This document shows positions 3,939 through 58,779 of a DNA stretch of 61,313 nucleotides, piece by piece; position 1 is the first letter of the stretch; each line of letters starts with the position of its first letter. Origin of the DNA: Klebsiella pneumoniae (GTDB lineage Bacteria > Pseudomonadota > Gammaproteobacteria > Ga0077536); assembly GCA_945861225.1 (NCBI GenBank), contig CAMATU010000002.1, positions 1-61,313 of the forward strand, read 5' to 3'. The notes under the pieces were generated by a model, which was not told where the DNA came from, searched no databases, and saw only the letters and a program-made list of their open reading frames with translations. Made by a program: the position numbers and the translations under genes.

Positions 3939-4427
3939 TCAAGGCGGTAACAACAGGCGCAGCATGCCCAGGCCGGGGCCGAGCTCGGACCACCGCGCGA
4001 GATCCAACGCCACTTCGGCCAGGGTGCCCGCCTCGCACATGAGCGAGGCATCCATCTGCTGAGTGGTTAGTAAACTTATGAAGTCCGCGACCCCGGGCGC
4101 ATGCGCAACCAACAACAGTTGGGTGACGTCAGCCGACTGACTTCGCGCTGCGCTGAGGAGTTCGGCGGCGCTCGCCTGGTAAAGCCGATCAATGGAACAT
4201 ACCGGAGTGGTCCACGCGGCCGCCGCGACTACTGCCTCGGCAGTTTCCCGCGTACGCACCGCCGCCGAGCACACGATTTGATCGGGAAGGTAGCCGCGTT
4301 GCTGCAGCCAGGTACCCAGCGTTTGCGCCTGCGCACGCCCATAGGCGGTGAGGGGGCGCTGCACGTCGGGCAGTGCGCGGCTCTCTGGTGCGGCTTGTGC
4401 GTGACGCAGAATCAACAGAGATTTCAC
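3939..4427 (-). CDS. SixA-like phosphohistidine phosphatase (histidine phosphatase superfamily)
   Basis: VKSLLILRHAQAAPE...RPLTAYGRAQAQ...VCSAAVRTRETAE contains the RHG-type motif. GTG at 4427 avoids overlap with the upstream gene; the track ORF extends to 4583. Confidence 0.7.
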   Translation of the reverse strand: MKSLLILRHAQAAPESRALPDVQRPLTAYGRAQAQTLGTWLQQRGYLPDQIVCSAAVRTRETAEAVVAAAAWTTPVCSIDRLYQASAAELLSAARSQSADVTQLLLVAHAPGVADFISLLTTQQMDASLMCEAGTLAEVALDLARWSELGPGLGMLRLLLPP

Positions 4428-4441
4428 GCTCGCGACAAGCC

Positions 4442-5086
4442 TTACGCCGCACCCAGCGCGTACGCGCTGCTCGTGGGCGTCATTAGCGGGATCATTCGCC
4501 AGTGCGCACCGCTGCATTCGAACATCAAAGGTAGCGCGTTGGCGGTCAAGTCCACCGAAAGCTCGATGTCCAGCGCGCCACACAGCACGCGCAATACGCC
4601 CCCATGACTGACTAGCAGCGGCAGTGGCCCCGGCACCAGCAGCTCACCAACACCCACCAAGGTGCGATCAACAAAATCGACCAGGGTCTCGCCATTCACG
4701 GGATCTATCCGCCAGTCCAAGCCTTCGCTGGTGGTGCCGATGAGATCGCCAAAGTAGCGCTCGCGGAGCGCAGCGCACACGCTCACTGGTTTAGCGGTCG
4801 CGGCGGCCACGCGACCGGCAGTGAGCCATGCGCGAGCCATGTCGCTGGCATAGATGTGATCGAAGGGAATGTCGCATAGGCCGCTGGCAGCGGCGTCGGC
4901 ATCACCGAAACCTTCTGCGCACAGCGGAATATCTGGATGCTGAAAAACCCGCTGCAGATTGCCGGCAGTGCGGCCGTGCCGCAGGAACAGGAAGCGATCA
5001 CGATTGGCTTTCAGGCCCGTGGCGCGCGCGATGGCACGCAGTGCCAACTGGCCGGCCTGATTCTCAAGCGTTGCGGTAGTACTCAT
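4442..5086 (-). CDS. Histidine phosphatase family protein (phosphoglycerate mutase-like)
   Basis: Motifs FLFLRHGRTAGN ... LLVSHGGVLR; 214 aa. Confidence 0.8.
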   Translation of the reverse strand: MSTTATLENQAGQLALRAIARATGLKANRDRFLFLRHGRTAGNLQRVFQHPDIPLCAEGFGDADAAASGLCDIPFDHIYASDMARAWLTAGRVAAATAKPVSVCAALRERYFGDLIGTTSEGLDWRIDPVNGETLVDFVDRTLVGVGELLVPGPLPLLVSHGGVLRVLCGALDIELSVDLTANALPLMFECSGAHWRMIPLMTPTSSAYALGAA

Positions 5087-7622: not shown

Positions 7623-8759
7623 TCAGATCGGCGTGAACCCCGCCTCACGCGGAAATCCCGCAATATCCGGTGGCGGGTAGTAGCGATCCGCGCCCAGCGC
7701 ATCGACTCTCGCGAAGAACTCTTCGTTGGCCGCGAAACCCATGGGTCCCAGCTCGCGCAGGTTCATCGCCTGGCGGTAGAGATTCCACGATTCGGGGTGT
7801 AAATCGCTCGCAGTTTTCAGGCACGCATCGCCTTCCGCTTCTTTGCCGTGCTGGCGCAGATAGAAGCCTAAACGGAAGTTGGCATTGGCGAGTGCGACAT
7901 TATCCGCCGGGAGTTCAAGATGCGCGCGCGCCTGTTCTGGCGTGAAGGCGTGCTTGCTCTTGGCGCCGTTGATGGCCCAATCGCGGACTGCACTCACATA
8001 GGTCTGTTGTGCCTTGGCGACAAGCGCGGCGGAGCCTTCCGGCACGCTGCGATCTTCACGGTTCATTGCGCGCCAGCCGTCGTGCGAGCCGGCGGTCTCA
8101 GCCGGGCGCACGATGTGACCTTCCTCGTCGATCCACACCGCCTGCGGCACATTGACCATGTTGTACAAATCCGCGACATGATGTTCGCGATCGATCAATG
8201 TCACATAGCCTGGCTTGGCAAGATCAATCCACTCGCGTGCAGTTTCATTGCCGCGGCTCTCTTCGGCCACCGCGATGATCATGAAATTCTGGTCTTTGAC
8301 TTCGTCGTACAGAGCCTGCCACACGGACAGGTCATAACGACAGCCTCACCAGGACGACCAGGTCGTCAGCAATACGCGCTTGCCACGATAATCAGACAAG
8401 GCATGCGACTTGCCGTCGATATCCGGCAGCCGGAAGTCCGGTGCGTCCAGCGTCTTAAGCGCATTCGCGCGATCACTTGCGCCCACCCCAAACAGCCAGG
8501 TATCACGGGCTTGATCGTGCAGCACCGGGCGACCCAATAACTTCCAAAACGCGGCGGCGTTAACGTCGTCGCCCTGCACAAAGGTCTCAGGTTTTTCACG
8601 GGGTACCGGCACGCACAGGTCGCCCTGGCACAGGCCTTCGGGTTTCAGGGTCCAGCCGAGCGCGCGTTCGATGTCGGGCTTGTTCAGCCACAGATCGTCG
8701 CCGCTGGCGCGCCCCGCTGCCACCATCGTGGCGCCGGCCTCGGTAAGTACGGTGAGCAT
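7623..8759 (-). CDS. Thioredoxin-fold (TlpA/ResA-like) selenoprotein, in-frame UGA (8346-8348) read as Sec138, plus helical C-terminal domain
   Basis: Track ORFs 8346-8759 and 7623-8324 are in the same frame. Between them is one TGA followed by GGC TGT CGT. Read-through gives RVLLTTWSSW-U-GCRYDLSVWQALYDEVKDQNFMIIAV, a CxxC redox motif with U at the first position. A strong AAGGAG RBS precedes ATG 8759. Confidence 0.75.
8304..8341 (-). promoter_or_regulatory. Candidate SECIS-like extended hairpin
   Basis: Minus-strand RNA folds as GUCGU-UAU-GACCUG-uccgugugg-CAGG(C)UC-UGU-ACGAC, starting 7 nt after the UGA. It was folded by eye and is imperfect. Confidence 0.35.
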
Positions 8760-8821
8760 AAAGTTCTCCTTGAAAAGAGCGTGGGTAGATGAATCGGCTG
8801 TGCGAGCGAGAATAACGCAGA

Positions 8822-11044
8822 TCAGGTGGCGACCAACACAGTGCCGATAACCGTTGCCGCTTTACAGTCGGCCGCACGCAGCGCCGCAAGACATTGCGCG
8901 ACCTGCCGCGCCGGCACCGCGAGGAGCAACCCACCCGATGTCTGCGGATCAAACAACAACGGATAACGCAGCGGAAACTGCGCGTGGTCGCTAATGGTTA
9001 AATGCGCGTCCAAACGCTCGTTGTGTTGATGGAGCGTACTGCGGATACCCGCCTCGACCATTTCGCACGCGCCAGCCAGTACGGGCAGCGCGCCGAGCGT
9101 TATTTCCGCCCGCAAGCCCCCGCGCCGAAGCATCTCGCTGAGATGACCGGCCAATCCGAAGCCCGTCACATCCGTCATCGCATGCACTTCGAAGGCCTCG
9201 ACGGCGCGCGCGGCGGGGCCGTTGGTCGCGACCATGTGTTCGAGCGCGTAATCCAGCCAGGCGCTGTGCGCGAGCCGCCGCATGGCGCCAGCCAGGACGA
9301 CGCCGCTACCGAGGGGTTTGGTCAGGATCAGGCAATCTCCGGCGCACAGAGCGTCCTTAGCCCTTAACTGATCGCGCGCGACATGGCCGTTAATCGCGAA
9401 GGCCAGCGACAATTCAGCCCCTTCACTGGTGTGACCACCGACCAGTGCAGTCCCTTCTTGCGCGAAGACCGCACTGGCGCCGGCCAGCAGCAGCGCCAAA
9501 TCACGGCGCACCATGGCCGGCGCGGCGAGCGGCAAGGTGACATAGGCCAGTGCCGATTGCGGCTGCGCGCCCATCGCGAAAATATCGGACAGACAATGGG
9601 CGGCAGTAATCTGGCCGAAGACATAGGGATCGGACACGAACGCGCGAAAGCCATCGATGGTATGCACCGCAAGGCGCCCTCGCGGCAACTCGGTCACTGC
9701 CGCATCGTCGCGGCCGCCAAGGCCCACGATGATGTCCGCACGCGGCGCCGCCGGCAGTTCCCGCAAGGCCTCGGCGATGATTTCCGCGCCGACCTTGGCG
9801 CCGCAACCGCCGCAGCGCATTGCTTGCGGACCGAGCGCTGCAATCTCGCGCGCCAAGGCGGCCGGTACAGGCGTCGCGGCGTGCGTCATCACTGGCAGGT
9901 GTTGGTACTTGCGCATGAAGCGACGATCAATCCAGTCTTTCCAACGCCATACCCAGGCGCCGCTCAAGCGCCAATTGCCGCGTGAGGCGACGGCTGACTT
10001 CGCGCCGGTGGAAATCAGACTCAGCGCGTCGCGTTGTGGACGATGGTCGCGAAGTGCTTCTCCGCGACAGGCACGGCGCAGATTTTCCGCCAGCGCTGGC
10101 CCTTGGCGCACCGCATATACGCCAGACTTAGGCCGCGGCGCGCCATCAATCGTTGCGCAGTCACCTACCGCGAAAATCTGCGGATGGGAGACCGAACGCA
10201 GATTATTGCCGACGCGGATATAGCCCGCCGCATCGACCGCGAGACCCGCCTCCGCGAACCACGGGGCAGCAGCGGCGGTAGTCACCCACAACACTTCATC
10301 GAGCCAAAAGCGCGCGCCGCTTTGCGCGTGGACTGCGTCCGGCTCGACGCGCACGATGCGCTGTCCGGTGTGTACCAGGATGCCCTGCGCGGCAAGCACG
10401 CGGGCGAACGTGTCGCGGGTGCGGCGATTATGGGCCGGCAGTACCTCGGTGGTCGCAGTGAACAAGTGAAACTCAAGATGTGCGGCGCTGCGTCCAGTGG
10501 CCGCGAGTTCGCCAAGCAGACGATGGCGAACGGCGAGGATTAGCTCAACCCCCCCTGCGCCGCCACCCACCACTCCCACCTTAAGCGGGCTGTTGCTCGC
10601 CAATACGCGCGCGTGCAGCGCCAGCCAGCGCACATTGAACTCATCGATCGGCTTTACCGGTGTTACGTTCGGCGAGATCTCGGGCAGATCTGCGAGTGAT
10701 GGCGTGGAACCCGCATTGATCGAGAGCAGATCAAATTCGAGCGGTGGCCGACCGCGACACAGCACACGCCGTGCAAGGATATCGAAACCTACCACTTCGG
10801 CCTGGATGAAGCGGGCCTGGGCGAATTCGGCCAGTGCCCGTAAATCGAAATGCATTTCATCGGGTTGGTAATGACCGGCGATAAGCCCTGGCAGCATGCC
10901 GGAATAGGGCGATTGGCTGGCGCGGCTGAGCAAGGTCAAACGTACCCCGGGTAACGGTTGCATGCCAAAGCGCTTCAATACGGCTAGATGACTGTGGCCG
11001 CCGCCGATGAGGACGAGATCTTTAACGACGGGTTGGGTTAGCAC
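8822..11044 (-). CDS. selD: Bifunctional FAD-dependent pyridine nucleotide-disulfide oxidoreductase / selenide,water dikinase (SelD fusion, Cys-type)
   Basis: The N-terminal half has DLVLIGGGHSH and GVVGGGAGGVE Rossmann motifs. The C-terminal half has RCGGCGAKVG ... GRDDAAV ... HTIDGFRAFVSDPYVFGQITAAHCLSDIFAMGAQP, which are SelD signatures. GTG 11044 (MLTQPVVKDLVLIGGG) is the likely start; the track start 11215 overlaps the divergent gene. Confidence 0.85.
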   Translation of the reverse strand: MLTQPVVKDLVLIGGGHSHLAVLKRFGMQPLPGVRLTLLSRASQSPYSGMLPGLIAGHYQPDEMHFDLRALAEFAQARFIQAEVVGFDILARRVLCRGRPPLEFDLLSINAGSTPSLADLPEISPNVTPVKPIDEFNVRWLALHARVLASNSPLKVGVVGGGAGGVELILAVRHRLLGELAATGRSAAHLEFHLFTATTEVLPAHNRRTRDTFARVLAAQGILVHTGQRIVRVEPDAVHAQSGARFWLDEVLWVTTAAAAPWFAEAGLAVDAAGYIRVGNNLRSVSHPQIFAVGDCATIDGAPRPKSGVYAVRQGPALAENLRRACRGEALRDHRPQRDALSLISTGAKSAVASRGNWRLSGAWVWRWKDWIDRRFMRKYQHLPVMTHAATPVPAALAREIAALGPQAMRCGGCGAKVGAEIIAEALRELPAAPRADIIVGLGGRDDAAVTELPRGRLAVHTIDGFRAFVSDPYVFGQITAAHCLSDIFAMGAQPQSALAYVTLPLAAPAMVRRDLALLLAGASAVFAQEGTALVGGHTSEGAELSLAFAINGHVARDQLRAKDALCAGDCLILTKPLGSGVVLAGAMRRLAHSAWLDYALEHMVATNGPAARAVEAFEVHAMTDVTGFGLAGHLSEMLRRGGLRAEITLGALPVLAGACEMVEAGIRSTLHQHNERLDAHLTISDHAQFPLRYPLLFDPQTSGGLLLAVPARQVAQCLAALRAADCKAATVIGTVLVAT

Positions 11045-11177
11045 GCGTAGCCGACACTGATTACCGAAGGTGGACTGTAGCGGACCCGCGGCCCTGCCCC
11101 AACCCCTACATTTATCCCGGCACCTGACGCCCTCGGGTACACTGCGGGGCATCAGCCTGTTCAGTTGGAGACTACCG

Positions 11178-11837
11178 ATGGATCTCGCAAGCCTTACCCA
11201 CCGCCTCGCGGCCATCGAAACCTCTCACCTGGCGGATGCCAACAAAGCGATCCGCCTGATGGACCCTGGTCTGCGACCACTGCATGCAGGGCGCAAGCTT
11301 ATTGGACGTGCTTTTACGCTCACCTGTCACGAGGATTTCATGACCGTGATGGTGGCGCTCAAGGAGGCTGAAGCGGGTGATGTGCTGGTGATCGATACCC
11401 GTGGCAGCCGGCGTGCGGTACTCGGCGAGCTGTTCAGTCTGGAAGCGCAACGGCGCGGCTTGGCGGGCATTATTGTCGATGGCCCCGTGCGGGACACGGT
11501 GACACTCCGGACGCTCGAGATCCCAATTTACGCGCGCAGCACAACCCCGCTTGCGGGCACCATCCAACAGCTTTCCCCGGTGCAGCAACCCGTGCAGTGC
11601 GGTGGAGTCACCGTCAACCCAGGCGATATGGTGTTTGGCGATGAGGATGGGATTATTGTCGCGAGCGCCGCCGAGCTCGCAGCGCTGTTGCCAGCAGCCG
11701 AAGAAATCGAGGCGCGTGAACGGGCCGTGATTGCGCGCCTGCAAGCCGGTGAGAGCTTGTTATCGATGCTCAATTTCGAGGAGCATCGGGCTAATCTGAT
11801 GGCCGGGCGCGAGAGTGCTTTGCGTTTTCTGACTTGA
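11178..11837 (+). CDS. RraA family protein (RNase E regulator / HMG-aldolase-like)
   Basis: Motifs GDVLVIDTRGSRRAVLGELFSLEAQRRGLAGIIVDGPVRD. ATG 11178 has a GGAG RBS. Confidence 0.8.
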   Translation: MDLASLTHRLAAIETSHLADANKAIRLMDPGLRPLHAGRKLIGRAFTLTCHEDFMTVMVALKEAEAGDVLVIDTRGSRRAVLGELFSLEAQRRGLAGIIVDGPVRDTVTLRTLEIPIYARSTTPLAGTIQQLSPVQQPVQCGGVTVNPGDMVFGDEDGIIVASAAELAALLPAAEEIEARERAVIARLQAGESLLSMLNFEEHRANLMAGRESALRFLT

Positions 11838-29145: not shown

Positions 29146-31218
29146 TCACTCGCTGAGTTGCGCCAGCAACTGCAGTTGTGCGTCGCGCGTCTTCGCACCG
29201 GCTTTCAAGCGATGATAGCTACCATCGCTGTGCAGCGCCCACGCCCGGGTGTTGTCGCTCAGGTAAATTTCCAAGCCTTCTTTAATCACTCTTTCGCGCA
29301 ATCGCTTGTCTTCGAGCGGGAAGCACACTTCGATGCGATCAAAGAAATTGCGCCCCATCCAGTCCGCGCTTGAGAGATAGACTTCCTTGTCGTCATCGTT
29401 CTGAAAGAAGAACACTCGCGAATGTTCCAGAAAGCGCCCCACAATGGACCGCACGCGGATGTTATCGGACATCCCCTCGATTCCTGGGCGCAACGCACAC
29501 ACGCCGCGCACGATCAGATCAATTTTCACTCCGGCGCGGGACGCGTCGTAAAGCGCCTGAATGATCTTCACTTCAATTAGCGCGTTCATCTTGGCGATAA
29601 TCCGCGCCGGCCGACCCGCGCGTGCATGCGCGGCTTCCCGCGCGATTAAGGACAGCACGTGACTGTGCAACGTGAAGGGCGACTGCAGCAGTTTTTTGAG
29701 CTTGCCGGCGCGTCCAGGCGCGGTCAGCTGATGGAAGATTTTCTGGACGTCCATGCCGAGGGTGTTATCACAAGTGAATAAACCGAAATCGGTGTATTGC
29801 CGTGCGGTACGCGGATGGTAGTTGCCGGTCGCGAGGTGCACGTAGCGGCGCAGCTGTTTGCCTTCGCGGCGCAGCACCAGAATCATCTTGGCGTGGGTTT
29901 TAAAGCCCACCACACCGTACACCACATGCGCACCGGCTTCCTGCAGACGCGTCGCGAGTTCAATGTTTGCTTCTTCATCGAAGCGCGCTTTCAATTCAAC
30001 CACCACGGTGACTTCCTTGCCGGCGCGCGCCGCATCGACCAGAATTTTCGCAATCGGGGAATCCGGGCCGGTGCGATAAAGCGTTTGCCGAATCACCAGC
30101 ACGTCAGGATCTGCTGCGGCCTGGCGTAATAAATCGATGACGGGCGAGAAGGATTCAAAAGGATGGTGCAGCAGCAGATCGCCACGTCTGATGGCGGCGA
30201 AGACGTCCATGCCAAGCGGCAGGCGGCGCGGTCGGCTCGGGGTAAAGATTGGGAACTTGAGATCGGCGCGTTCGATCATGTCCGGCACTGCCATCAGGCG
30301 CGTTAAATTGACCGGGCCATGGCAGCGATAAATATCTTCAGGCGCCAGTTTGAACTCTTGCTGCAGCAGGCTAATCATCTCATTGGGGCAGTCATCCGCG
30401 ACCTCCAGGCGCACCGCATCACCAAAGCGGCGCTGATGCAGCTCACCCTCCAGCGCGTGCAATAAATCTTCGACATCTTCATCTTCCACGAATAGCTCGC
30501 TGTTGCGGGTCACGCGAAACTGATAACACCCGGTCACGCGCATGCCAGGAAAAAGATCTTCGACATGCGCGTGAATGATCGAGGACAGGAAAACGAACTC
30601 GTGCGGATCGGTGGCGAACTCAACTGGAATATTGATCACGCGGGGCAAGGCACGCGGCGCCTGGACAATTGCGATTGCGCTGTCGCGCCCGAAGGCATCG
30701 GTCCCTTCGAGGGAGACCAGGAAGTTCAAGCTCTTATTCAGGATGCGTGGAAACGGGTGTGAGGGATCGAGCCCAATGGGGCTCAGCACTGGCAGCAGTT
30801 CGCGATAGAAATGGCGTTTCACCCACTGGGCCTGCCGCGCGTTCCATTCCCCGCGCTTCAGAAAGTGAATACCAGCGGCCGCGAGCAGGGGGGTGAGTAC
30901 ACTGTTCAACACGTGGTACTGGTCCGTGACCAGCGCGTGGGTGATTTCACTGATGCGTTTCAACTGATCGCCGGGGCTCAGCTGATCAGGCCCCACCGGG
31001 GCGGATTGAAAGGCCACCTGTTCCTTCAGCCCGGCCACCCGAATCTCAAAAAACTCGTCTAAATTGCTGCTCGCAATGCACAGGAATCGCAAGCGCTCGA
31101 GCAGCGGGTTACTCTCATCCTTCGCTTGTTCGAGTACGCGCCGATTGAACTCGAGCAAAGACAGCTCGCGATTGATATAGAGCCGGGGGTCGGTGGCTTC
31201 TAAGGTTTTGGCATCCAT
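29146..31218 (-). CDS. ppk: Polyphosphate kinase 1
   Basis: 690 aa. INRELSLLEFNRRVLEQA, the autophosphorylation region GFKTHAKM, and PLD-like HSRVFFF. Confidence 0.95.
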   Translation of the reverse strand: MDAKTLEATDPRLYINRELSLLEFNRRVLEQAKDESNPLLERLRFLCIASSNLDEFFEIRVAGLKEQVAFQSAPVGPDQLSPGDQLKRISEITHALVTDQYHVLNSVLTPLLAAAGIHFLKRGEWNARQAQWVKRHFYRELLPVLSPIGLDPSHPFPRILNKSLNFLVSLEGTDAFGRDSAIAIVQAPRALPRVINIPVEFATDPHEFVFLSSIIHAHVEDLFPGMRVTGCYQFRVTRNSELFVEDEDVEDLLHALEGELHQRRFGDAVRLEVADDCPNEMISLLQQEFKLAPEDIYRCHGPVNLTRLMAVPDMIERADLKFPIFTPSRPRRLPLGMDVFAAIRRGDLLLHHPFESFSPVIDLLRQAAADPDVLVIRQTLYRTGPDSPIAKILVDAARAGKEVTVVVELKARFDEEANIELATRLQEAGAHVVYGVVGFKTHAKMILVLRREGKQLRRYVHLATGNYHPRTARQYTDFGLFTCDNTLGMDVQKIFHQLTAPGRAGKLKKLLQSPFTLHSHVLSLIAREAAHARAGRPARIIAKMNALIEVKIIQALYDASRAGVKIDLIVRGVCALRPGIEGMSDNIRVRSIVGRFLEHSRVFFFQNDDDKEVYLSSADWMGRNFFDRIEVCFPLEDKRLRERVIKEGLEIYLSDNTRAWALHSDGSYHRLKAGAKTRDAQLQLLAQLSE

Positions 31219-49405: not shown

Positions 49406-51262
49406 ATGGCTTGGCGCGCATGGATTACATTCCTGTTGGTTATCGCGCAGTGGATAGGCCTGGCGGGTGCGCACGCCGATTACCTCGATGACATCGGTTT
49501 TCGCGCGCTCGCAGTGGCGCTCGGCGCGAACCTTCCGAATGGGGTGAGCGTGCGCATTGATCAGGTCGAAGCACCGATCGGCGGTGGCGAGACGGACCCG
49601 ATCTATCGCGCCGATCCGGCCAATGCCGAATTCAGCGGCGTCACGTTTCACGATCAGTCGAGTGGCATCAATCCGTTGTTCTCCGGGCATGCCACGGGGG
49701 TCGCGGTATTGTTCGCCGGCACGAGTTCCATGACGCCTGGTGTGCAGCAGGTGGACAGTTACGAGGCGAACAGCTGGCTCACGCTCGTGCTGTTCAACGG
49801 CGGCGTGGGCTTGCAGCGACCCGTCACTGGCACCGGCTCACTCGCGAACCACAGCTGGGTGGGCGCGACGACCACCGCCGAACAGGCCGTCGATCTGCTG
49901 AATCGCCTGGACTGGTTGATCGACACTGACGACACTGCGCAGATCGTCGGCGTCAATAACAACGGCAACCCGTTGTTCTCGCATGCGTACAACGTGATTG
50001 GCGTCGCGCACACCGCCAACCTCACCACACAACTGACTGCCGCCCTCGATTCGTTCTATGTCGCTGGCCGGGCGCTCCCGCATCTCGTGGCGCCGCGTGG
50101 TTCGGTCAGCGCGGCGACCCCCGTGGTGACTGCTGCCGCCGCCTTTTTAATCGACAGCACAGCGGCCAACACACTCCCGGTCGAGGGCGTCAAAGCGCTG
50201 TTGATGGCGGGCGCCGATCGCGTCACCCGCAACACCGCAGCGGGCAACCTCGATCATTTTACCGGCACCACCGCCAATGGGCTCGATCCGCGTTATGGCG
50301 CGGGTCAGTTGAATGTGCTGCAGAGCTATACGCTGCTTGCGGCGGGTGAGAAGGCGAGTACTGAGGATGGCGGCGTGGGCGGCACTGCATCGGGATATGA
50401 CTACGACAATGCCTTCGGGGGTGCCTCAGGGGCGAATGCCACCGCAACGTATCCACTCGGCACCTTGATCCAGGCCGGAAAGTTGCAGGCGACGCTCGCG
50501 TGGCACGCGTTGATCGTGGATGACGCCGGCGCATTTGCGCCGACTTCGCGCGTGCTGCAGAACTTCAATCTGCAGCTCATCGACACCACAGCAGGTGGCA
50601 GCGCGCAGGTCGCGCTCTCGCAAAGTACACTGGACAATACCGAAACGCTGCACGTTGAAGTGCTCGCGGGCCGCAGTTACAGCCTCAAGGTGCTGAATGC
50701 CGGCGGCAATGTCAGCCGTGCTTACGCGCTCGCCTGGCGGCTTGAAGCGGATCGTGATCGCGATGGGGTGTTCGACAAGTTCGAGACCGGCACCTGCCCT
50801 GGTGTGAGCGATGCGGACAGTGATGACGACGGCCTGGCCGATGGCGCAGAAGACGTGAATTTCGATGGCCAGGTCAATCCCACGGAAACCAGCCCTTGCC
50901 TGCGCGATACCGATGGCGACGGCTTACAGGATGGGACGGAACGCGGCGTCACCACGCCGGTGCTCGATCCCGATGGCGCGGGGCCCCTGCTCGGCACGGA
51001 GATCAGCGTGTTCATCCCGGACGCGAATTCCGGCACTACCACCAATGCCACCAATGGCGATACCGATGCGGATGGGGCCAGCGACGGGAGCGAGGATCTG
51101 AATCGCAACGGCGCACTGGACGTCGGTGAATCCGATCCGAACGATGCCGGATCAACCCCCGCCACTGCGCACACCGTGCCGCTGTTGCCGCTGTGGATGT
51201 TCGGTGTACTCACTGTGCTGCTGTGGTTGATCGGTGCGCGTTGCGTGCGGATCAGGCGCTAA
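49406..51262 (+). CDS. Subtilisin-like (S8) domain protein with acidic Ca-binding (TSP3-like) repeats and CTERM sorting tail
   Basis: S8-like blocks are VRIDQVEA (Asp), SGHATGVAV (His), LANHSWVG (Asn) and GSVSAATPVVTAAAAFL (Ser). They are followed by repeats DADSDDDGLADGAED / DTDGDGLQDGTE / DTDADGASDGSED. The tail is VPLLPLWMFGVLTVLLWLIGARCVRIRR. Confidence 0.6.
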   Translation: MAWRAWITFLLVIAQWIGLAGAHADYLDDIGFRALAVALGANLPNGVSVRIDQVEAPIGGGETDPIYRADPANAEFSGVTFHDQSSGINPLFSGHATGVAVLFAGTSSMTPGVQQVDSYEANSWLTLVLFNGGVGLQRPVTGTGSLANHSWVGATTTAEQAVDLLNRLDWLIDTDDTAQIVGVNNNGNPLFSHAYNVIGVAHTANLTTQLTAALDSFYVAGRALPHLVAPRGSVSAATPVVTAAAAFLIDSTAANTLPVEGVKALLMAGADRVTRNTAAGNLDHFTGTTANGLDPRYGAGQLNVLQSYTLLAAGEKASTEDGGVGGTASGYDYDNAFGGASGANATATYPLGTLIQAGKLQATLAWHALIVDDAGAFAPTSRVLQNFNLQLIDTTAGGSAQVALSQSTLDNTETLHVEVLAGRSYSLKVLNAGGNVSRAYALAWRLEADRDRDGVFDKFETGTCPGVSDADSDDDGLADGAEDVNFDGQVNPTETSPCLRDTDGDGLQDGTERGVTTPVLDPDGAGPLLGTEISVFIPDANSGTTTNATNGDTDADGASDGSEDLNRNGALDVGESDPNDAGSTPATAHTVPLLPLWMFGVLTVLLWLIGARCVRIRR

Positions 51263-51765: not shown

Positions 51766-53316
51766 TTACGCGGGCACCGGACCAGGTCGCCCCGCTTCTA
51801 CTATCCACGTCGACAACGTACTGCACTTCGCGTCTAGCTGCTGCGGCTGATCCAGCACCCGCAGGTCGGTGCAGAGCCGCTGCGGGGTAACTTCGACCCG
51901 GCAATAACCACGATGCTGGCCGGTCGCGAGGTGAATGTGCGGCCCTTCAGCGAGCGCCGTCTGAATGCGATCTTCGGGCGGCGGATATGAGGTGATCGAG
52001 GTTGTGACGAATTCGGAGGCCACCGTCGGCGCGTTCTGCGCAGTGAAATCCTGTTTGAGATCGGCCACCCAGAAAGAATGCACATCGCCGCCGAACACGA
52101 CAGGGTTCGCGGCGCGCGTCGCGATCAACTGGTCGAGCAAACGCTGTCGCGCCGCCGGATAGCCATCCCAACCGTCGGAAAAAAACATTTCGCCGGCGCC
52201 GGCCTTGCCGTCGGACTGGGCCATCAACGTTGTCTGTGCGAGCAGATTCCACCGCGCTTTGCTCGTCGCGAGACCTGCTGCCAACCAATGTTCCTGACGT
52301 GTGCCCAGTAACGTGGCCGTCGGGTCCAGCCGCTGCGCGCAATTTTCAATCACCCGTGCGCCACCACGGCCAGGGGTCGGACACGGTTGCGGTGTCCGGT
52401 ACTGCCGCGTGTCGAGCAGATTCATTTCTGCGAGCTGGCCGAAGGTCGCACGCGCGTGCAGTCGCATGTCCGGCCCGAACGGCAGCATCGAACGGCGCAG
52501 TGGCATATGCTCGTAGTACGCCTGATACGCTGCCGCGCGACGGGCGCGGAACCAGCGCGGGTGATCGGCATTTTCCGAGCGATCATTCGCGTAATCGTTC
52601 TCGAACTCATGGTCGTCCCACATCAGGTACCACGGGTACGCCGCATGCGCACGTTGCAGATCAGGGTCTCCGCGATAGTGCGCAAAGCGGGCGCGGTAAT
52701 CCTCTAACGTGAACGGCTCACCCGCTTCGTGGCGACGCACCAGGTTGGCACCCCATGAAGTCTCATAGAGGTAGTCGCCGACATGCACGATGAAATCGAG
52801 ATCGTCGTCGAGCATGTGCCGGTAGGCCGAAAAATAACCGTGCTCGTAGTGCTGGCATGACGCGACGGCAAAGCGCAACAGCGCCACCTCGGCATTCGGT
52901 GCCGGCGCCGTGCGCGTGCGTCCCACCGGGCTCGTGGTGCTGCCGGCATGAAAGCGATACCAGTACGTGCGCGCTGGCAGCAGGGTGTCCACCTCGACAT
53001 GCACGCTGTGGCCCCAGTCAGGGGTGGCGTACGCCGTGCCGCTGGCAACGACACGCGCGAAACGCTCGTCTGCAGCGACTTCCCAAGTGACCGGCACAAT
53101 GATCGGGGGCATGCCACCGCCCGGCGCGCGCGGTTCGGGCGCAAGACGGGTCCAGAGCGCCACCCCCTGCGGAAGCGGGTAGCCGGAGGCGACACCGAGA
53201 CTGAAGGGATCTCCTGCGAAAGGCGGCGCCGCGTGCAGGCGCGGTACCGCCCCGGCCAGCAGCAGCCCACCGCATTGCGTCAGAAATGTGCGGCGGGATT
53301 TAATGCGCGTTGGCAT
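51766..53316 (-). CDS. phoD: Alkaline phosphatase D family protein (PhoD), Tat signal
   Basis: MPTRIKSRRTFLTQCGGLLLAGA, FSLGVASGYP, HVGDYLYE, WDDHEFENDYA. ATG 53316 overlaps the 3' end of the upstream gene by 17 nt. Confidence 0.9.
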   Translation of the reverse strand: MPTRIKSRRTFLTQCGGLLLAGAVPRLHAAPPFAGDPFSLGVASGYPLPQGVALWTRLAPEPRAPGGGMPPIIVPVTWEVAADERFARVVASGTAYATPDWGHSVHVEVDTLLPARTYWYRFHAGSTTSPVGRTRTAPAPNAEVALLRFAVASCQHYEHGYFSAYRHMLDDDLDFIVHVGDYLYETSWGANLVRRHEAGEPFTLEDYRARFAHYRGDPDLQRAHAAYPWYLMWDDHEFENDYANDRSENADHPRWFRARRAAAYQAYYEHMPLRRSMLPFGPDMRLHARATFGQLAEMNLLDTRQYRTPQPCPTPGRGGARVIENCAQRLDPTATLLGTRQEHWLAAGLATSKARWNLLAQTTLMAQSDGKAGAGEMFFSDGWDGYPAARQRLLDQLIATRAANPVVFGGDVHSFWVADLKQDFTAQNAPTVASEFVTTSITSYPPPEDRIQTALAEGPHIHLATGQHRGYCRVEVTPQRLCTDLRVLDQPQQLDAKCSTLSTWIVEAGRPGPVPA

Positions 53317-54730
53317 CTGAAAATCGTGGCCCCGAATTCGATTTCCGGAATCGCGTGAGACACACGCCGCCCAGCGCGAAGCCGATCCACGCTGCCGGCA
53401 GCGGCACTGGCGCAATCCGATAGACGATGCCGCCATTACCGTTCGCCGGGGTATTGGTCACCAGCGCATAGAGCTCACCTGTCGCATCTTCGCCAAAGCC
53501 GTGCACGGTGAGTCCATTGGGAAGCTTGCCATCGACGAACTGCGGCAACAGGAATTCATTGATCAAACCAGTGGTGAGATCGGCGTAGAACAGGCGACCG
53601 TCTACGCGCGGCGGCGCGTTGCGCAGCGCGAGATCGCCGAATACGTATTTGCCGTAGAGTTCGGGGATCGCGACACCGCGATAGACGAAGCCGCCGGTAA
53701 TGGAAATACCGTCGCCGTGATCGTATTCCAAGGCGCCGAGCGAACCGACGATGGGATCGATCAAATCCACGGAATCCCCTGGACTGCGTGCGCCGACATT
53801 GCCGGTCGCCCGATCAAACAGGAAATCCCCTTCCTTGATGGCCCAGCCATAGTTGCCGCCGAGCTCCACACGATTGATTTCCTCAACATTGCGCTGGCCG
53901 ACATCAGCGAGGATCAGATCGCCGGTGACCCGATCGAAGCTGAAGCGGTAGGGATTGCGGAAACCGTACGCGAAAGTCTCCGCCACCTGGCCCGCACCTT
54001 GAAACGGATTGGTGGTGGGGATTCGATACTGACCATTGGCACTGACGGGATTTGCGCTGCCCGCAGTCACTGCCGGATCGAGAGGATCGATGCGCAGCAT
54101 CTTGCCGAGCGGGGTACTCAGGTTCTGCGCATTGCCGCCGGGTTCGAGGTGACTCGGACCGACATCGTTCGCGTTGCCGCCATCGCCGAGTCCCAGATAC
54201 AGCAGGCCGTCGTGACCGAAGGCCAGGGTGCCGCCGTTCATCTTCCACTCTGTGACGACATTCTGGTAACCCTGGGTCGCATTATTCGGTGCTGCGTAAG
54301 TCGGTGTGCTGCCCACGGGGATCGGTTCACTGGTGTAGGTGTACAACGAGCGATAGCCCGCGCTGGTTGGTGTGCTGAAGCCGGGATGAAAAGCTAGACC
54401 TAGAAAACCGCGCTCATCATTTGCGTTGGCCGTGTTCAAAGGCGGCGCGACACGGCTGCGAATATCCAGCACCGTGGTTGGCGCGAGCTGGCCGTTTTGC
54501 AGCGCGAGTAACAGCCCATTCTGATCAACCACAAACAAGCGACCGGCATCGCCCGGCGCGCTGATCGCGTAATCCGGCGCGGCGAGGCCGGTTGCAATTG
54601 ATTCCAGATGAACGGCGATCGTGCCGCGCGTGATGGCCGGCAGCAACGGGCCGGCGAACGCGGCGTCAGGCAGCAAACACAAAATCGCGAGAGCGGAGCT
54701 AGGTAGGGATCGGCGTGTGTAGGTGGGCAT
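53300..54730 (-). CDS. PQQ-dependent sugar (glucose/sorbosone) dehydrogenase-like beta-propeller with CTERM sorting tail
   Basis: Signal peptide, ERGFLGLAFHPGF, GLGDGGNAND, LGGNYGW. The tail is APVPLPAAWIGFALGGVCLTRFRK. Confidence 0.8.
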   Translation of the reverse strand: MPTYTRRSLPSSALAILCLLPDAAFAGPLLPAITRGTIAVHLESIATGLAAPDYAISAPGDAGRLFVVDQNGLLLALQNGQLAPTTVLDIRSRVAPPLNTANANDERGFLGLAFHPGFSTPTSAGYRSLYTYTSEPIPVGSTPTYAAPNNATQGYQNVVTEWKMNGGTLAFGHDGLLYLGLGDGGNANDVGPSHLEPGGNAQNLSTPLGKMLRIDPLDPAVTAGSANPVSANGQYRIPTTNPFQGAGQVAETFAYGFRNPYRFSFDRVTGDLILADVGQRNVEEINRVELGGNYGWAIKEGDFLFDRATGNVGARSPGDSVDLIDPIVGSLGALEYDHGDGISITGGFVYRGVAIPELYGKYVFGDLALRNAPPRVDGRLFYADLTTGLINEFLLPQFVDGKLPNGLTVHGFGEDATGELYALVTNTPANGNGGIVYRIAPVPLPAAWIGFALGGVCLTRFRKSNSGPRFSDANAH

Positions 54731-56385: not shown

Positions 56386-58779
56386 ATGAAAGGCAATAAG
56401 CATCCGCAGAACGATGTCACGATCAATCCGTCAGGTAATCCCTCGATCCGCGATCTAATCTCGCAGATCGATCTGGATCGCCGACACTTTCTGAGTACCG
56501 CAGTTCACGCCTCGGCGCTGGCTGCGGTGAGTGGCCTGTCTACCGCCGGCTTACTGCTGCCTGGTACGGTGGAAGCTGCGCCAATTCTGCCGAGCAATGG
56601 TTTCGGCGGGATCGGTTTTGAGAGCATTGCAGCGAAGCTCGCACCAGTGGCGAATTCGGTAGAAGTGCCAGCCGGGTACACCGTTGAACTTCTCGCTGCA
56701 TGGGGACAACCGATCATGCCGGGCGCACCGGACTGGAATCCGGATGCGACGCAAACGGCCGCAGATCAGCTCAAGCAATTCGGCATGCATAACGATGGGA
56801 TGCATTTTTTCTCATTTCCGACGCGCGGCGGACTTTCCAATGTGCGTGGAATTCTGTGTGTGAACAATGAATACACCCACGAAGGAATTCTCCACGGTGC
56901 TGATGGGTTAGTCGGCACACTCGGTGTGACGATCGCGAAAGTGCGCAAGTCGCAAGCCGGCCACGGCGTTTCCATCATGGAAGTTCGCAAGAGCTTCGGC
57001 CCGGATGGGGACAAATGGGGAGTCGTGAAGACTTCACGCTATGGACGCCGCCTCTCCGCGAACACCCCGATGAGAATGTCCGGCCCCGCCGCCGGGCACG
57101 CGCTCTTAAAGTCCAAGAAGTTCTCGATCACGCCCACGGGTTCGACCGAGATCGGTTTCAACGATGGCTTCACTGCTTTCGGCACGCACAATAATTGCGC
57201 ACACGGCTATACGCCGTGGGGCACCTACCTCACCTGCGAAGAGAACTGGAACGGTAACTTCGGATCCAATGCCGGTGATCCTGCGCCGACAGATTCCTCA
57301 GTCGCGAACGGTCAGGTGCGTTACGGTGTTTCAGCGGCCGGATTCAACTATCAATGGCATGTCGCCGATCCGCGCTTCAATGCGCGCACCAATCCGCTCG
57401 AACCGCATCTCTACGGGTGGGTCGTCGAAGTCGATCCGTTTGATCCCAACAGCGTACCGGTCAAGCGTACTGCACTGGGGCGCATGAAAAAAGAAAGTGC
57501 GCATGTCGCGCTGAGCAAGGATGCAGAGAACACCCCAAAGAGAGTCGCGTTCTATATCGGCGACGACGAACGTAATGAGTATGTCTATAAGTTTGTCTGC
57601 GCTGGCGCATTCAATCCAACCAATCGCGCCGCGAATCGGGATCTGATGGATGCCGGTATTCTCTATGTCGCGAAATTCACGAATACCGCAGGCGCCAGTA
57701 ACGGGACTTTCCGAGGACAGTGGCTTGCGTTGGTGCCGGACACGCTCTCCGTGATTTCCAATGGCAATGGCGGCTTCTTCAAACTGGGCGAACTCACGCA
57801 GTTCGGTGCGCCGGTGCAAGGCACGGCCAATCCGAATGACGCGGAAGTCCAGGCATTGATTCTCATCAAGACCCGGCAGGCTGGCGACGCCGTCGGTGCG
57901 ACGATGATGGATCGTCCAGAATGGACTGCACTGCGCACTTACAACAATGGACATGGCAATGGTCCTTTAGGCTATGACGCGCAGCACCCGCTCGAACTTT
58001 ACTGCACGCTGACTAATAACAGCCGGCGCGGCGGTGGTGGGACTATCTCCGTGAACAACCCGAACGGTACGACCGGTGCCGGCACGGCGCGACCACCAGT
58101 CGATGTCGCGAATCCACGGCCGGACAACGACTATGGACACATCATCCGTTGGCGCGAAGACGGAAACTTCGTCACCGCCACCGGTTTTGAGTGGGATATC
58201 TTCACGATTTGTGGCGACACGCAGGTGCCGGTCACCAAGACGCTTGCCGCGAACTACCTGAAGGACAACTTCATCGGGGTGGCGACCGCTGACTCGGATT
58301 TCAACAAGAAGATCTACGAAGGCAGTATCAATGACGCGCCGAACGGCAGTGCCGACTTTGGGGCGCCTGATGGCCTGTGGTTCGACCAATTCGGTCGGCT
58401 ATGGATACAGACTGATCAAATTGGCGATGCCAGCGGCGATTTTGCCAACGTCGGTGCGAATGTCATGTGTTGCGCCGATCCGAACACCAAGGAAATTCGC
58501 CGTTTCCTGACCAGCCCACGGAACTGCGAAGTGACGGGCGTCATGAATACGCCAGATGGCAAGACCATGTTCGTCGGTATCCAGCATCCGGGTGAAGATT
58601 CACTGGCTGCGAATCCCACTGAGTTCAGCAATTGGCCACAAAGTCAGTTCGATAAGAACAGCGCGGGTGAACCATTGGCAGTGATCAACAAAGTGGTCCA
58701 GCCGATCGGTGCCAATATCCGCCCGCGCTCTTCGGTGCTGGTCATTACCCGCACCGACGGCGGGGTGATTGGCGCCTGA
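56386..58779 (+). CDS. phoX: PhoX-family alkaline phosphatase (DUF839), Tat signal
   Basis: DLDRRHFLSTAVHASALAAVSG. YTPWGTYLTCEEN is the hallmark motif. Also FDQFGRLWIQTD; 797 aa. Confidence 0.9.
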   Translation: MKGNKHPQNDVTINPSGNPSIRDLISQIDLDRRHFLSTAVHASALAAVSGLSTAGLLLPGTVEAAPILPSNGFGGIGFESIAAKLAPVANSVEVPAGYTVELLAAWGQPIMPGAPDWNPDATQTAADQLKQFGMHNDGMHFFSFPTRGGLSNVRGILCVNNEYTHEGILHGADGLVGTLGVTIAKVRKSQAGHGVSIMEVRKSFGPDGDKWGVVKTSRYGRRLSANTPMRMSGPAAGHALLKSKKFSITPTGSTEIGFNDGFTAFGTHNNCAHGYTPWGTYLTCEENWNGNFGSNAGDPAPTDSSVANGQVRYGVSAAGFNYQWHVADPRFNARTNPLEPHLYGWVVEVDPFDPNSVPVKRTALGRMKKESAHVALSKDAENTPKRVAFYIGDDERNEYVYKFVCAGAFNPTNRAANRDLMDAGILYVAKFTNTAGASNGTFRGQWLALVPDTLSVISNGNGGFFKLGELTQFGAPVQGTANPNDAEVQALILIKTRQAGDAVGATMMDRPEWTALRTYNNGHGNGPLGYDAQHPLELYCTLTNNSRRGGGGTISVNNPNGTTGAGTARPPVDVANPRPDNDYGHIIRWREDGNFVTATGFEWDIFTICGDTQVPVTKTLAANYLKDNFIGVATADSDFNKKIYEGSINDAPNGSADFGAPDGLWFDQFGRLWIQTDQIGDASGDFANVGANVMCCADPNTKEIRRFLTSPRNCEVTGVMNTPDGKTMFVGIQHPGEDSLAANPTEFSNWPQSQFDKNSAGEPLAVINKVVQPIGANIRPRSSVLVITRTDGGVIGA

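Follow-up and report, generated by a model that had tools for sequence, protein, structure and literature searches.

A three-domain ResA/TlpA-like protein with a predicted selenocysteine in a U-G-C active site, encoded next to an Ndh-SelD fusion gene

Contig CAMATU010000002.1 of assembly GCA_945861225.1, listed as Klebsiella pneumoniae and placed by GTDB in the gammaproteobacterial lineage Ga0077536, was analyzed from position 1 to 61,313 (this whole stretch of 61,313 nucleotides is referred to as the window). On its minus strand, closely behind a gene for an Ndh-SelD fusion protein, lie two open reading frames (ORFs), 8346-8759 and 7623-8324, which raise the question whether the TGA codon at 8346-8348 is a stop between two genes or a selenocysteine (Sec) codon within a single one. 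The comparative evidence presented here points to the latter. Region 7623-8759 is very likely one gene, encoding a three-domain selenoprotein of an already catalogued family of ResA/TlpA-like proteins with a UGC motif.

An original prediction, made by reading the sequence without database searches, had joined the two ORFs into one recoded gene for a thioredoxin-fold protein, and the layout that it described agrees with the sequence in each point. Both ORFs share a single frame which is split by one TGA, the nucleotides from 8348 to 8325 read TGA GGC TGT CGT TAT GAC CTG TCC, and an AAGGAG ribosome-binding site precedes the start codon. The gap of 62 nt to the upstream fusion gene on the same strand is also as described. 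The upstream ORF 8346-8759 comprises 137 codons plus TGA, its coordinates thus already containing the in-frame TGA. Translation across this codon yields a product of 378 aa with the sequence ...KRVLLTTWSSW-U-GCRYDLSVWQ..., and alignment shows that homologues begin at the position matching the ATG at 8757-8759. The elements of the gene are as follows.

7623..8759, minus strand: complete gene of the predicted selenoprotein, 378 codons plus terminal TGA stop at 7623-7625 (from translation, the match to NF041054 and collinear alignment with full-length Cys homologues)
8766..8771, minus strand: Shine-Dalgarno sequence AAGGAG, 6 nt 5' of the ATG at 8757-8759 (direct reading)
8346..8348, minus strand: in-frame TGA, predicted Sec codon 138 (TGA in 81 of 82 related loci, Cys in full-length homologues)

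A homologue search of 5.8 billion proteins gave two classes of matches. The first consists of fragments of 220-236 aa with 68-100% identity, which begin just past the TGA column and include the window's own 233-aa C-terminal ORF (P0001). The second consists of full-length proteins of 342-391 aa with 46-56% identity, which are collinear with the read-through product across the TGA site and carry Cys at residue 138, within the motif WASWCGCR. Two of these Cys-type homologues were checked and are encoded by genuine Cys codons (TGC). A redox Cys in homologues at this residue is what the original prediction pointed to; the alternative it named, homologous genes that are genuinely two ORFs, is not what was found, the Cys-type homologues being single polypeptides.

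Scanning one genome per GTDB species revealed 80 loci, mostly from uncultured bacteria. The nearest are located in Gammaproteobacteria metagenome-assembled genomes (MAGs) and show 66-87% identity to the window; others belong to Methylomirabilota/Rokubacteria, Alpha- and Betaproteobacteria, Binatia and further groups. When the sister contig is counted with the scan loci, TGA occupies exactly the same column in 81 of 82 loci and TGC in one, which is far beyond chance. The frame is open over at least 125 codons upstream in 78 of 81 loci and over at least 215 codons downstream in 80 of 81, and both halves are conserved (mean protein identity to the window of 54% for the upstream and 57% for the downstream half). 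UGA is not reassigned in these organisms, since TGA also serves as the terminal stop of 34 family genes, of the window gene itself and of the neighbouring selD gene. A single gene with a UGA predicted to be recoded for Sec, as originally proposed, is thus strongly supported by the comparative evidence. One Sec-type locus from a Gammaproteobacteria MAG (L010, from 4812) contains a premature TAG 43 codons past the Sec codon, and is either a pseudogene or affected by an assembly error. Further ORF pairs joined by a TGA, both members having 60 aa or more, were looked for in the whole window, but none of them has a redox-type Sec context; a first recoded gene, which the original prediction implies by calling this one the second, did not come to light.

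In bacteria, Sec insertion depends on a hairpin within the ORF, the selenocysteine insertion sequence (SECIS). In the fdhF paradigm of Escherichia coli, the upper stem lies 12-14 nt past the UGA and the loop carries a G followed by a U, and the hairpin found here corresponds to it in both respects. The imperfect extended hairpin of the original prediction is present as the minimum free energy (MFE) structure, with -22.2 kcal/mol; comparison supports its core, while its lower stem is partly conserved.

8304..8341, minus strand: extended SECIS-like hairpin (MFE fold), lower stem 8337-8341 pairing with 8304-8308 and partly conserved
8315..8331, minus strand: conserved core of the predicted SECIS, upper stem of 5-6 bp with the apical loop CGUGU at 8321-8325, beginning 12-14 nt past the UGA

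The hairpin was analyzed in a gapless alignment of 80 distinct Sec-type sequences, each covering TGG-TGA plus 60 nt. The five core pairs 22:36 to 26:32 are intact in all 80 genes. Pair 21:37 is kept in 58 of them, with nine CG-to-UA double changes, and pair 22:36 occurs as CG (56), UG (21) or UA (3); within the stem, the Gln codon CAA is found only alongside the Leu codon UUG. The apical loop of 5 nt begins 20 nt past the UGA, and in it G28 is invariant and U29 more than 90% conserved. A conserved loop G of the bacterial SECIS has been mentioned before (PMC1794560). Of the extended hairpin, the lower stem is paired to 66% across the 80 sequences, and is therefore lineage-specific and outside the conserved element.

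As a control, 13 distinct Cys-type family members were used, taken from three of the loci (L026, L083 and L084) and from a metagenome pattern scan. All five core pairs are kept in only 3 of these 13 genes, compared to 80 of 80 Sec-type genes (Fisher p=3.5e-11, not phylogeny-corrected). The Leu codon of the stem ends in G in 80 of 80 Sec genes, whereas the Cys genes use a mixture of CTG, CTC, CTT and CTA. The loop codon encodes Val in 79 of 80 Sec genes and V, A, G, I, L or P in the Cys genes. This pattern, with the choice among synonymous codons narrowed in the Sec genes alone, indicates that the hairpin is kept by selection specifically where the UGA is present. With the fdhF-type SECIS of E. 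coli it has in common the position within the ORF directly 3' of the UGA and the small loop with a conserved G and then U; it differs by a family-specific sequence without a match in Rfam, and its binding by SelB is a prediction.

The read-through protein matches the NCBIfam model NF041054, "ResA-like WAxxUGC motif-containing protein" (long form), with E=1.7e-84 over profile positions 9-352 of 354. The same family was listed by Zhang and Gladyshev (2008) as "Prx-like (UGC-containing)", with the motif UGC and pfam00578 (PMC2398784). In the GOS data they counted 46 Sec and 855 Cys sequences, and the family was commoner in non-marine samples (PMC2398784). The window gene is therefore an added member of a catalogued family, within a WSSWUGC subclade. 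It shares with the described members the three-domain length, the U-G-C after WxxW, the existence of Sec and Cys forms and the occurrence in mostly non-marine, soil or freshwater bacteria. Differences are that the window clade has W-S-S-W-U-G-C instead of the literal W-A-x-x-U-G-C (Ala to Ser, the remaining motif being identical), and that linkage to Ndh-SelD is confined to this clade. The W-S-S-W motif clade comprises 13 close loci and L078. A literature search for "WAxxUGC" gave no match. In the metagenome scan (L085-L204), 109 of 123 W[AS]SWCGCR sites encoded by TGC or TGT are not followed by NVP[QS]xVWI within the next 90 residues. A CGC (CxC) active site thus seems to be present also in other, probably shorter, TlpA-like proteins; contig truncation may explain some of these cases.

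The three domains were delimited with a structure model of a Cys homologue of 52% identity (AF2, pLDDT 93.7, pTM 0.91), together with a model of the window's own N-terminal domain.

8469..8759, minus strand: N-terminal beta-rich domain, aa 1 to about 97 (AF2, pLDDT 90.6), with invariant Cys44 and Cys49 (CxxxxC)
8088..8462, minus strand: ResA/TlpA-like thioredoxin fold, aa about 100-224, with W-S-S-W-U138-G-C140-R (Pfam, PDB profiles, Foldseek)
7626..8087, minus strand: C-terminal helical domain, aa 225-378 (AF2 helices), with one repeat similar to tetratricopeptide repeats (TPR) at aa about 287-329

The thioredoxin fold assigned in the original prediction is borne out by profile searches, which lead to ResA, TlpA and DsbE. 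Residues 105-217 match Pfam AhpC-TSA with 62.7 bits (gathering cutoff 26), followed by Redoxin with 38.8 bits and a weak match to GSHPx, and residues 100-224 match the PDB profiles of 3kcm and of ResA, TlpA and DsbE structures. The model of the Cys homologue superposes on ResA (1st9) in Foldseek with a TM-score of 0.79 to the target, a root-mean-square deviation of 1.5 A and 28% identity. In this model residue 138 is located directly before helix 139-157, at the nucleophile position. The original prediction had placed U at the first Cys of a CxxC motif. The position after the conserved Trp is indeed that of the first Cys, but the motif is U-G-C and one residue shorter, WCG.CR aligning with WCPpCR of 3kcm. 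With ResA, TlpA and CcmG (DsbE) the protein thus shares the thioredoxin fold and the nucleophile that follows a conserved Trp where helix 1 begins, and it differs from them by UxC in place of CxxC (W-U-G-C against W-C-P-p-C in 3kcm). A further difference to the extracytoplasmic ResA and TlpA is the lack of an anchor or signal peptide and the presence of additional N- and C-terminal domains. Its scores with the corresponding models are far below the cutoffs (66.9 against 170 for the ResA model NF002854, 44 against 230 for the TlpA model). The hydropathy over 19 residues (Kyte-Doolittle) peaks at 0.9, and in the model residues 2-6 belong to the folded domain as one of its strands, which argues against a membrane anchor or signal peptide. 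The selenoprotein is probably soluble and cytoplasmic.

Both terminal regions lie outside a plain thioredoxin fold, as had been noted, although the N-terminal one covers about 97 aa and not about 140. Cys44 and Cys49 are invariant in the alignments and the CxxxxC motif is found in 79 of 81 loci. Comparison of the N-terminal domain with solved structures (Foldseek against PDB) revealed no similar one, the best E-value being 0.6. When 1.84 billion representatives were searched with this domain by phmmer, 640 matches resulted. Among the best 150 of these the domain is N-terminal, nearly all being located in proteins of about 100-150 aa and few in full-length proteins; the short ones are Sec-type fragments which end at the UGA. 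No alternative architecture for the domain occurs among the same best 150 of 640. For the C-terminal domain, residues 287-329 match consensus TPR proteins in a profile search, and some homologues have TPR matches in Pfam.

The gene upstream of the selenoprotein gene encodes an Ndh-type oxidoreductase domain fused to SelD.

8822..11215, minus strand: Ndh-SelD fusion gene (Pyr_redox_2 plus SelD), ORF of 797 codons (TIGR03169, TIGR00476, Pfam Pyr_redox_2, AIRS and AIRS_C)
8760..8821, minus strand: spacer of 62 nt between the fusion gene and the selenoprotein gene, without a promoter-like or terminator-like site

The fusion protein reaches 466.7 bits with TIGR03169 (cutoff 310) and 283 bits with the selD model TIGR00476 (cutoff 125), and stays below the cutoff of TIGR04369, a model for non-SelD paralogues (490 against 700). 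Its SelD part is of the Cys type with a C-G-G-C active site (RCGGCGAK in the ORF). Ndh-SelD fusions of the COG1252 type were described as common in aquatic bacteria, all of them being of the Cys type with CxxC in the SelD active site (PMC2398784). The fusion in the window has the matching domain order and the Cys-type CxxC and does not differ from them in any notable respect. Its ORF of 797 codons overlaps a divergent RraA-like gene (11070-11837, plus strand) by about 145 nt, a fusion protein of only 776 aa was called on the sister contig L001, and the match to TIGR03169 does not begin before residue 66; the gene is therefore likely to start well downstream of 11215. Between the stop of the fusion gene and the selenoprotein gene, which is on the same strand, there are 62 nt. 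Co-transcription is plausible since the spacer is devoid of promoter-like and terminator-like sites, and from this arrangement the two genes are probably co-transcribed.

A selD gene is also found next to the selenoprotein gene in the sister contig L001 (same strand), in L004 (reversed order, about 90 nt apart) and in L003, where one gene lies between the two. In L003, the closest relative (87% identity), this intervening gene (4209-4994) is DsbA-like (PF01323). It was considered as a redox partner and dropped, as it has FDFGSPAAY where CxxC is expected. The other approximately 77 loci lack a selD gene within 6 kb, and no selD linkage was seen in a relative of 73% identity located in a 5.7-Mb MAG chromosome.

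Several findings weigh against the interpretation as a selenoprotein of this family, or limit it. None of selA, selB and selC was found within the 61-kb window, tRNA-Sec was also missing when the window and 60 related loci were searched for it, and a Pfam scan of the ten largest other ORFs of the window identified neither SelA nor SelB, the 620-aa GTPase of the window being BipA. The Sec decoding machinery of this organism is thus assumed. The hairpin is unexceptional by itself, with a z-score of -1.46 on the single sequence, and no SECIS family was matched in Rfam, either at the gathering threshold or with a permissive search around the site. It is the comparative evidence and not the single-sequence fold that makes the hairpin convincing, and even there covariation is limited because the stem consists of constrained Leu, Ser/Pro, Trp and Gln codons. 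With 284.2 bits the protein remains below the curated NF041054 cutoff of 300. The cutoff is a tight one and the protein is just under it: P0120, a member named by NCBI, reaches 301, and values of 287-301 were obtained for the other homologues tested. As to the genomic context, only the window and the two loci most closely related to it, 3 of about 80 in total, have selD adjacent, and clustering of the neighbours across 79 loci revealed no conserved partner, the largest cluster comprising 13 of 79 and generic families. In the lack of a conserved neighbour, the gene context is uninformative on the substrate. Both the catalytic cycle described below and the part played in it by the CxxxxC pair are what we infer for this protein.

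If the TGA were a real stop, the region would contain two separate genes or one gene inactivated by a nonsense mutation. Automatic gene callers indeed give two products of 137 aa and 233 aa, and the missing Sec machinery in the window would fit, but neither half by itself makes a complete thioredoxin fold, the TGA stands at one column in 81 of 82 loci from different phyla and protein-level conservation extends over both halves, the Cys-type homologues are continuous, and conservation of the hairpin is limited to genes of the TGA type. We regard this explanation as extremely improbable. Hardly better is the assumption that UGA is read without selenium, by a normal tRNA (near-cognate Trp or Cys) or after reassignment of the codon. 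In its favor, selA, selB and selC are seen nowhere within the window. A reassigned codon is at odds with the TGA stops of the window gene, the selD fusion and the 34 family members. Readthrough by a normal tRNA would not account for a hairpin in SECIS position, with conserved loop G and U, which is missing in the Cys forms, nor for the adjacent selD gene; in addition, the site is a redox Cys, and at such positions the exchange of Sec and Cys is the rule (PMC1794560). This assumption is considered very improbable. Taken together, the TGA column, the open and conserved frames and the TGA termini lead us to rule out a pair of genes, a pseudogene and a reassigned code.

Different questions arise if the protein is accepted as a selenoprotein. 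It could be a peroxidase of the peroxiredoxin or GPx-like type and not a protein thiol-disulfide oxidoreductase. Sec is a good peroxide nucleophile, AhpC-TSA is the top Pfam match and is accompanied by the weak one to GSHPx, and the literature label reads "Prx-like". The signature PxxxT/SxxC of peroxiredoxins (AhpC/TSA) is absent, however, with Leu131 at -7 and Ser135 at -3, the latter being Ala in the family consensus. The nearest relatives in sequence and structure are ResA, TlpA and DsbE, and the TPR-like domain suggests a protein substrate. A peroxidase is judged unlikely, but a serious alternative. Another possibility is a dedicated partner of Ndh-SelD in selenium handling, for example one that reduces or carries selenium species toward selenophosphate, in place of a general redox enzyme. 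The linkage in the window, L001, L004 (reversed) and L003 (one gene between) implies that it survived rearrangement in this clade. Against this stand the approximately 77 other loci without selD within 6 kb, including the relative with 73% identity, and the existence of Cys-type members, of which L083 and L084 have no selD gene in their neighbourhoods. A role of this kind appears quite doubtful. A similarly low probability is given to the wider idea that the UGC selenoprotein and Ndh-SelD form a selenium-handling or redox module in this uncultured gammaproteobacterial clade, in which the CxxxxC domain would pass electrons or selenium on to U-G-C within the protein.

For the favored interpretation, a UGC-motif ResA/TlpA-like selenoprotein, the following mechanism can be proposed. 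SelB carrying Sec-tRNASec would bind the SECIS core at 8315-8331, and Sec would be inserted at codon 138, as suggested by the conservation pattern. Sec138 may then attack an oxidized substrate, which could be a disulfide, a sulfenate or possibly a peroxide, and Cys140 would resolve the adduct under formation of a strained U-G-C selenylsulfide. This would be returned to the reduced state by thioredoxin or, within the protein itself, by the CxxxxC pair of the N-terminal domain, while the TPR-like C-terminal domain probably selects the protein partner. In the lineage of the window, co-transcription behind Ndh-SelD would couple the selenoprotein to its selenophosphate supply.

Among the other genes of the window are those for a Ppk1 polyphosphate kinase (29146-31218), a PhoD-like phosphatase (51766-53436) and a PhoX alkaline phosphatase (56386-58779), which suggests a phosphate-scavenging lifestyle. 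PhoX has 797 aa, the same length as the ORF of the SelD fusion. An ORF of 618 aa (49406-51262, plus strand) shows no Pfam family at E<=1e-4.

The finding leaves the current understanding of selenoproteins unchanged; the UGC family and the Ndh-SelD fusion have both been described previously. It provides a correction of the annotation: gene callers split the gene into "hypothetical" fragments, of 137 aa and 233 aa in the window, and did likewise in the majority of related public loci and protein entries examined. The contrast between the hairpins of Sec and Cys genes is a clean natural experiment that shows selection on a family-specific bacterial SECIS. If the selenoprotein and Ndh-SelD did form a module, this would give a first function to the Ndh domain of the fusion and to an uncharacterized selenoprotein family. 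Among soil and freshwater bacteria this biochemically uncharacterized family is widespread, and the strained U-G-C center, the N-terminal Cys-pair domain without a solved relative and the occasional linkage to Ndh-SelD may make it worth biochemical work.

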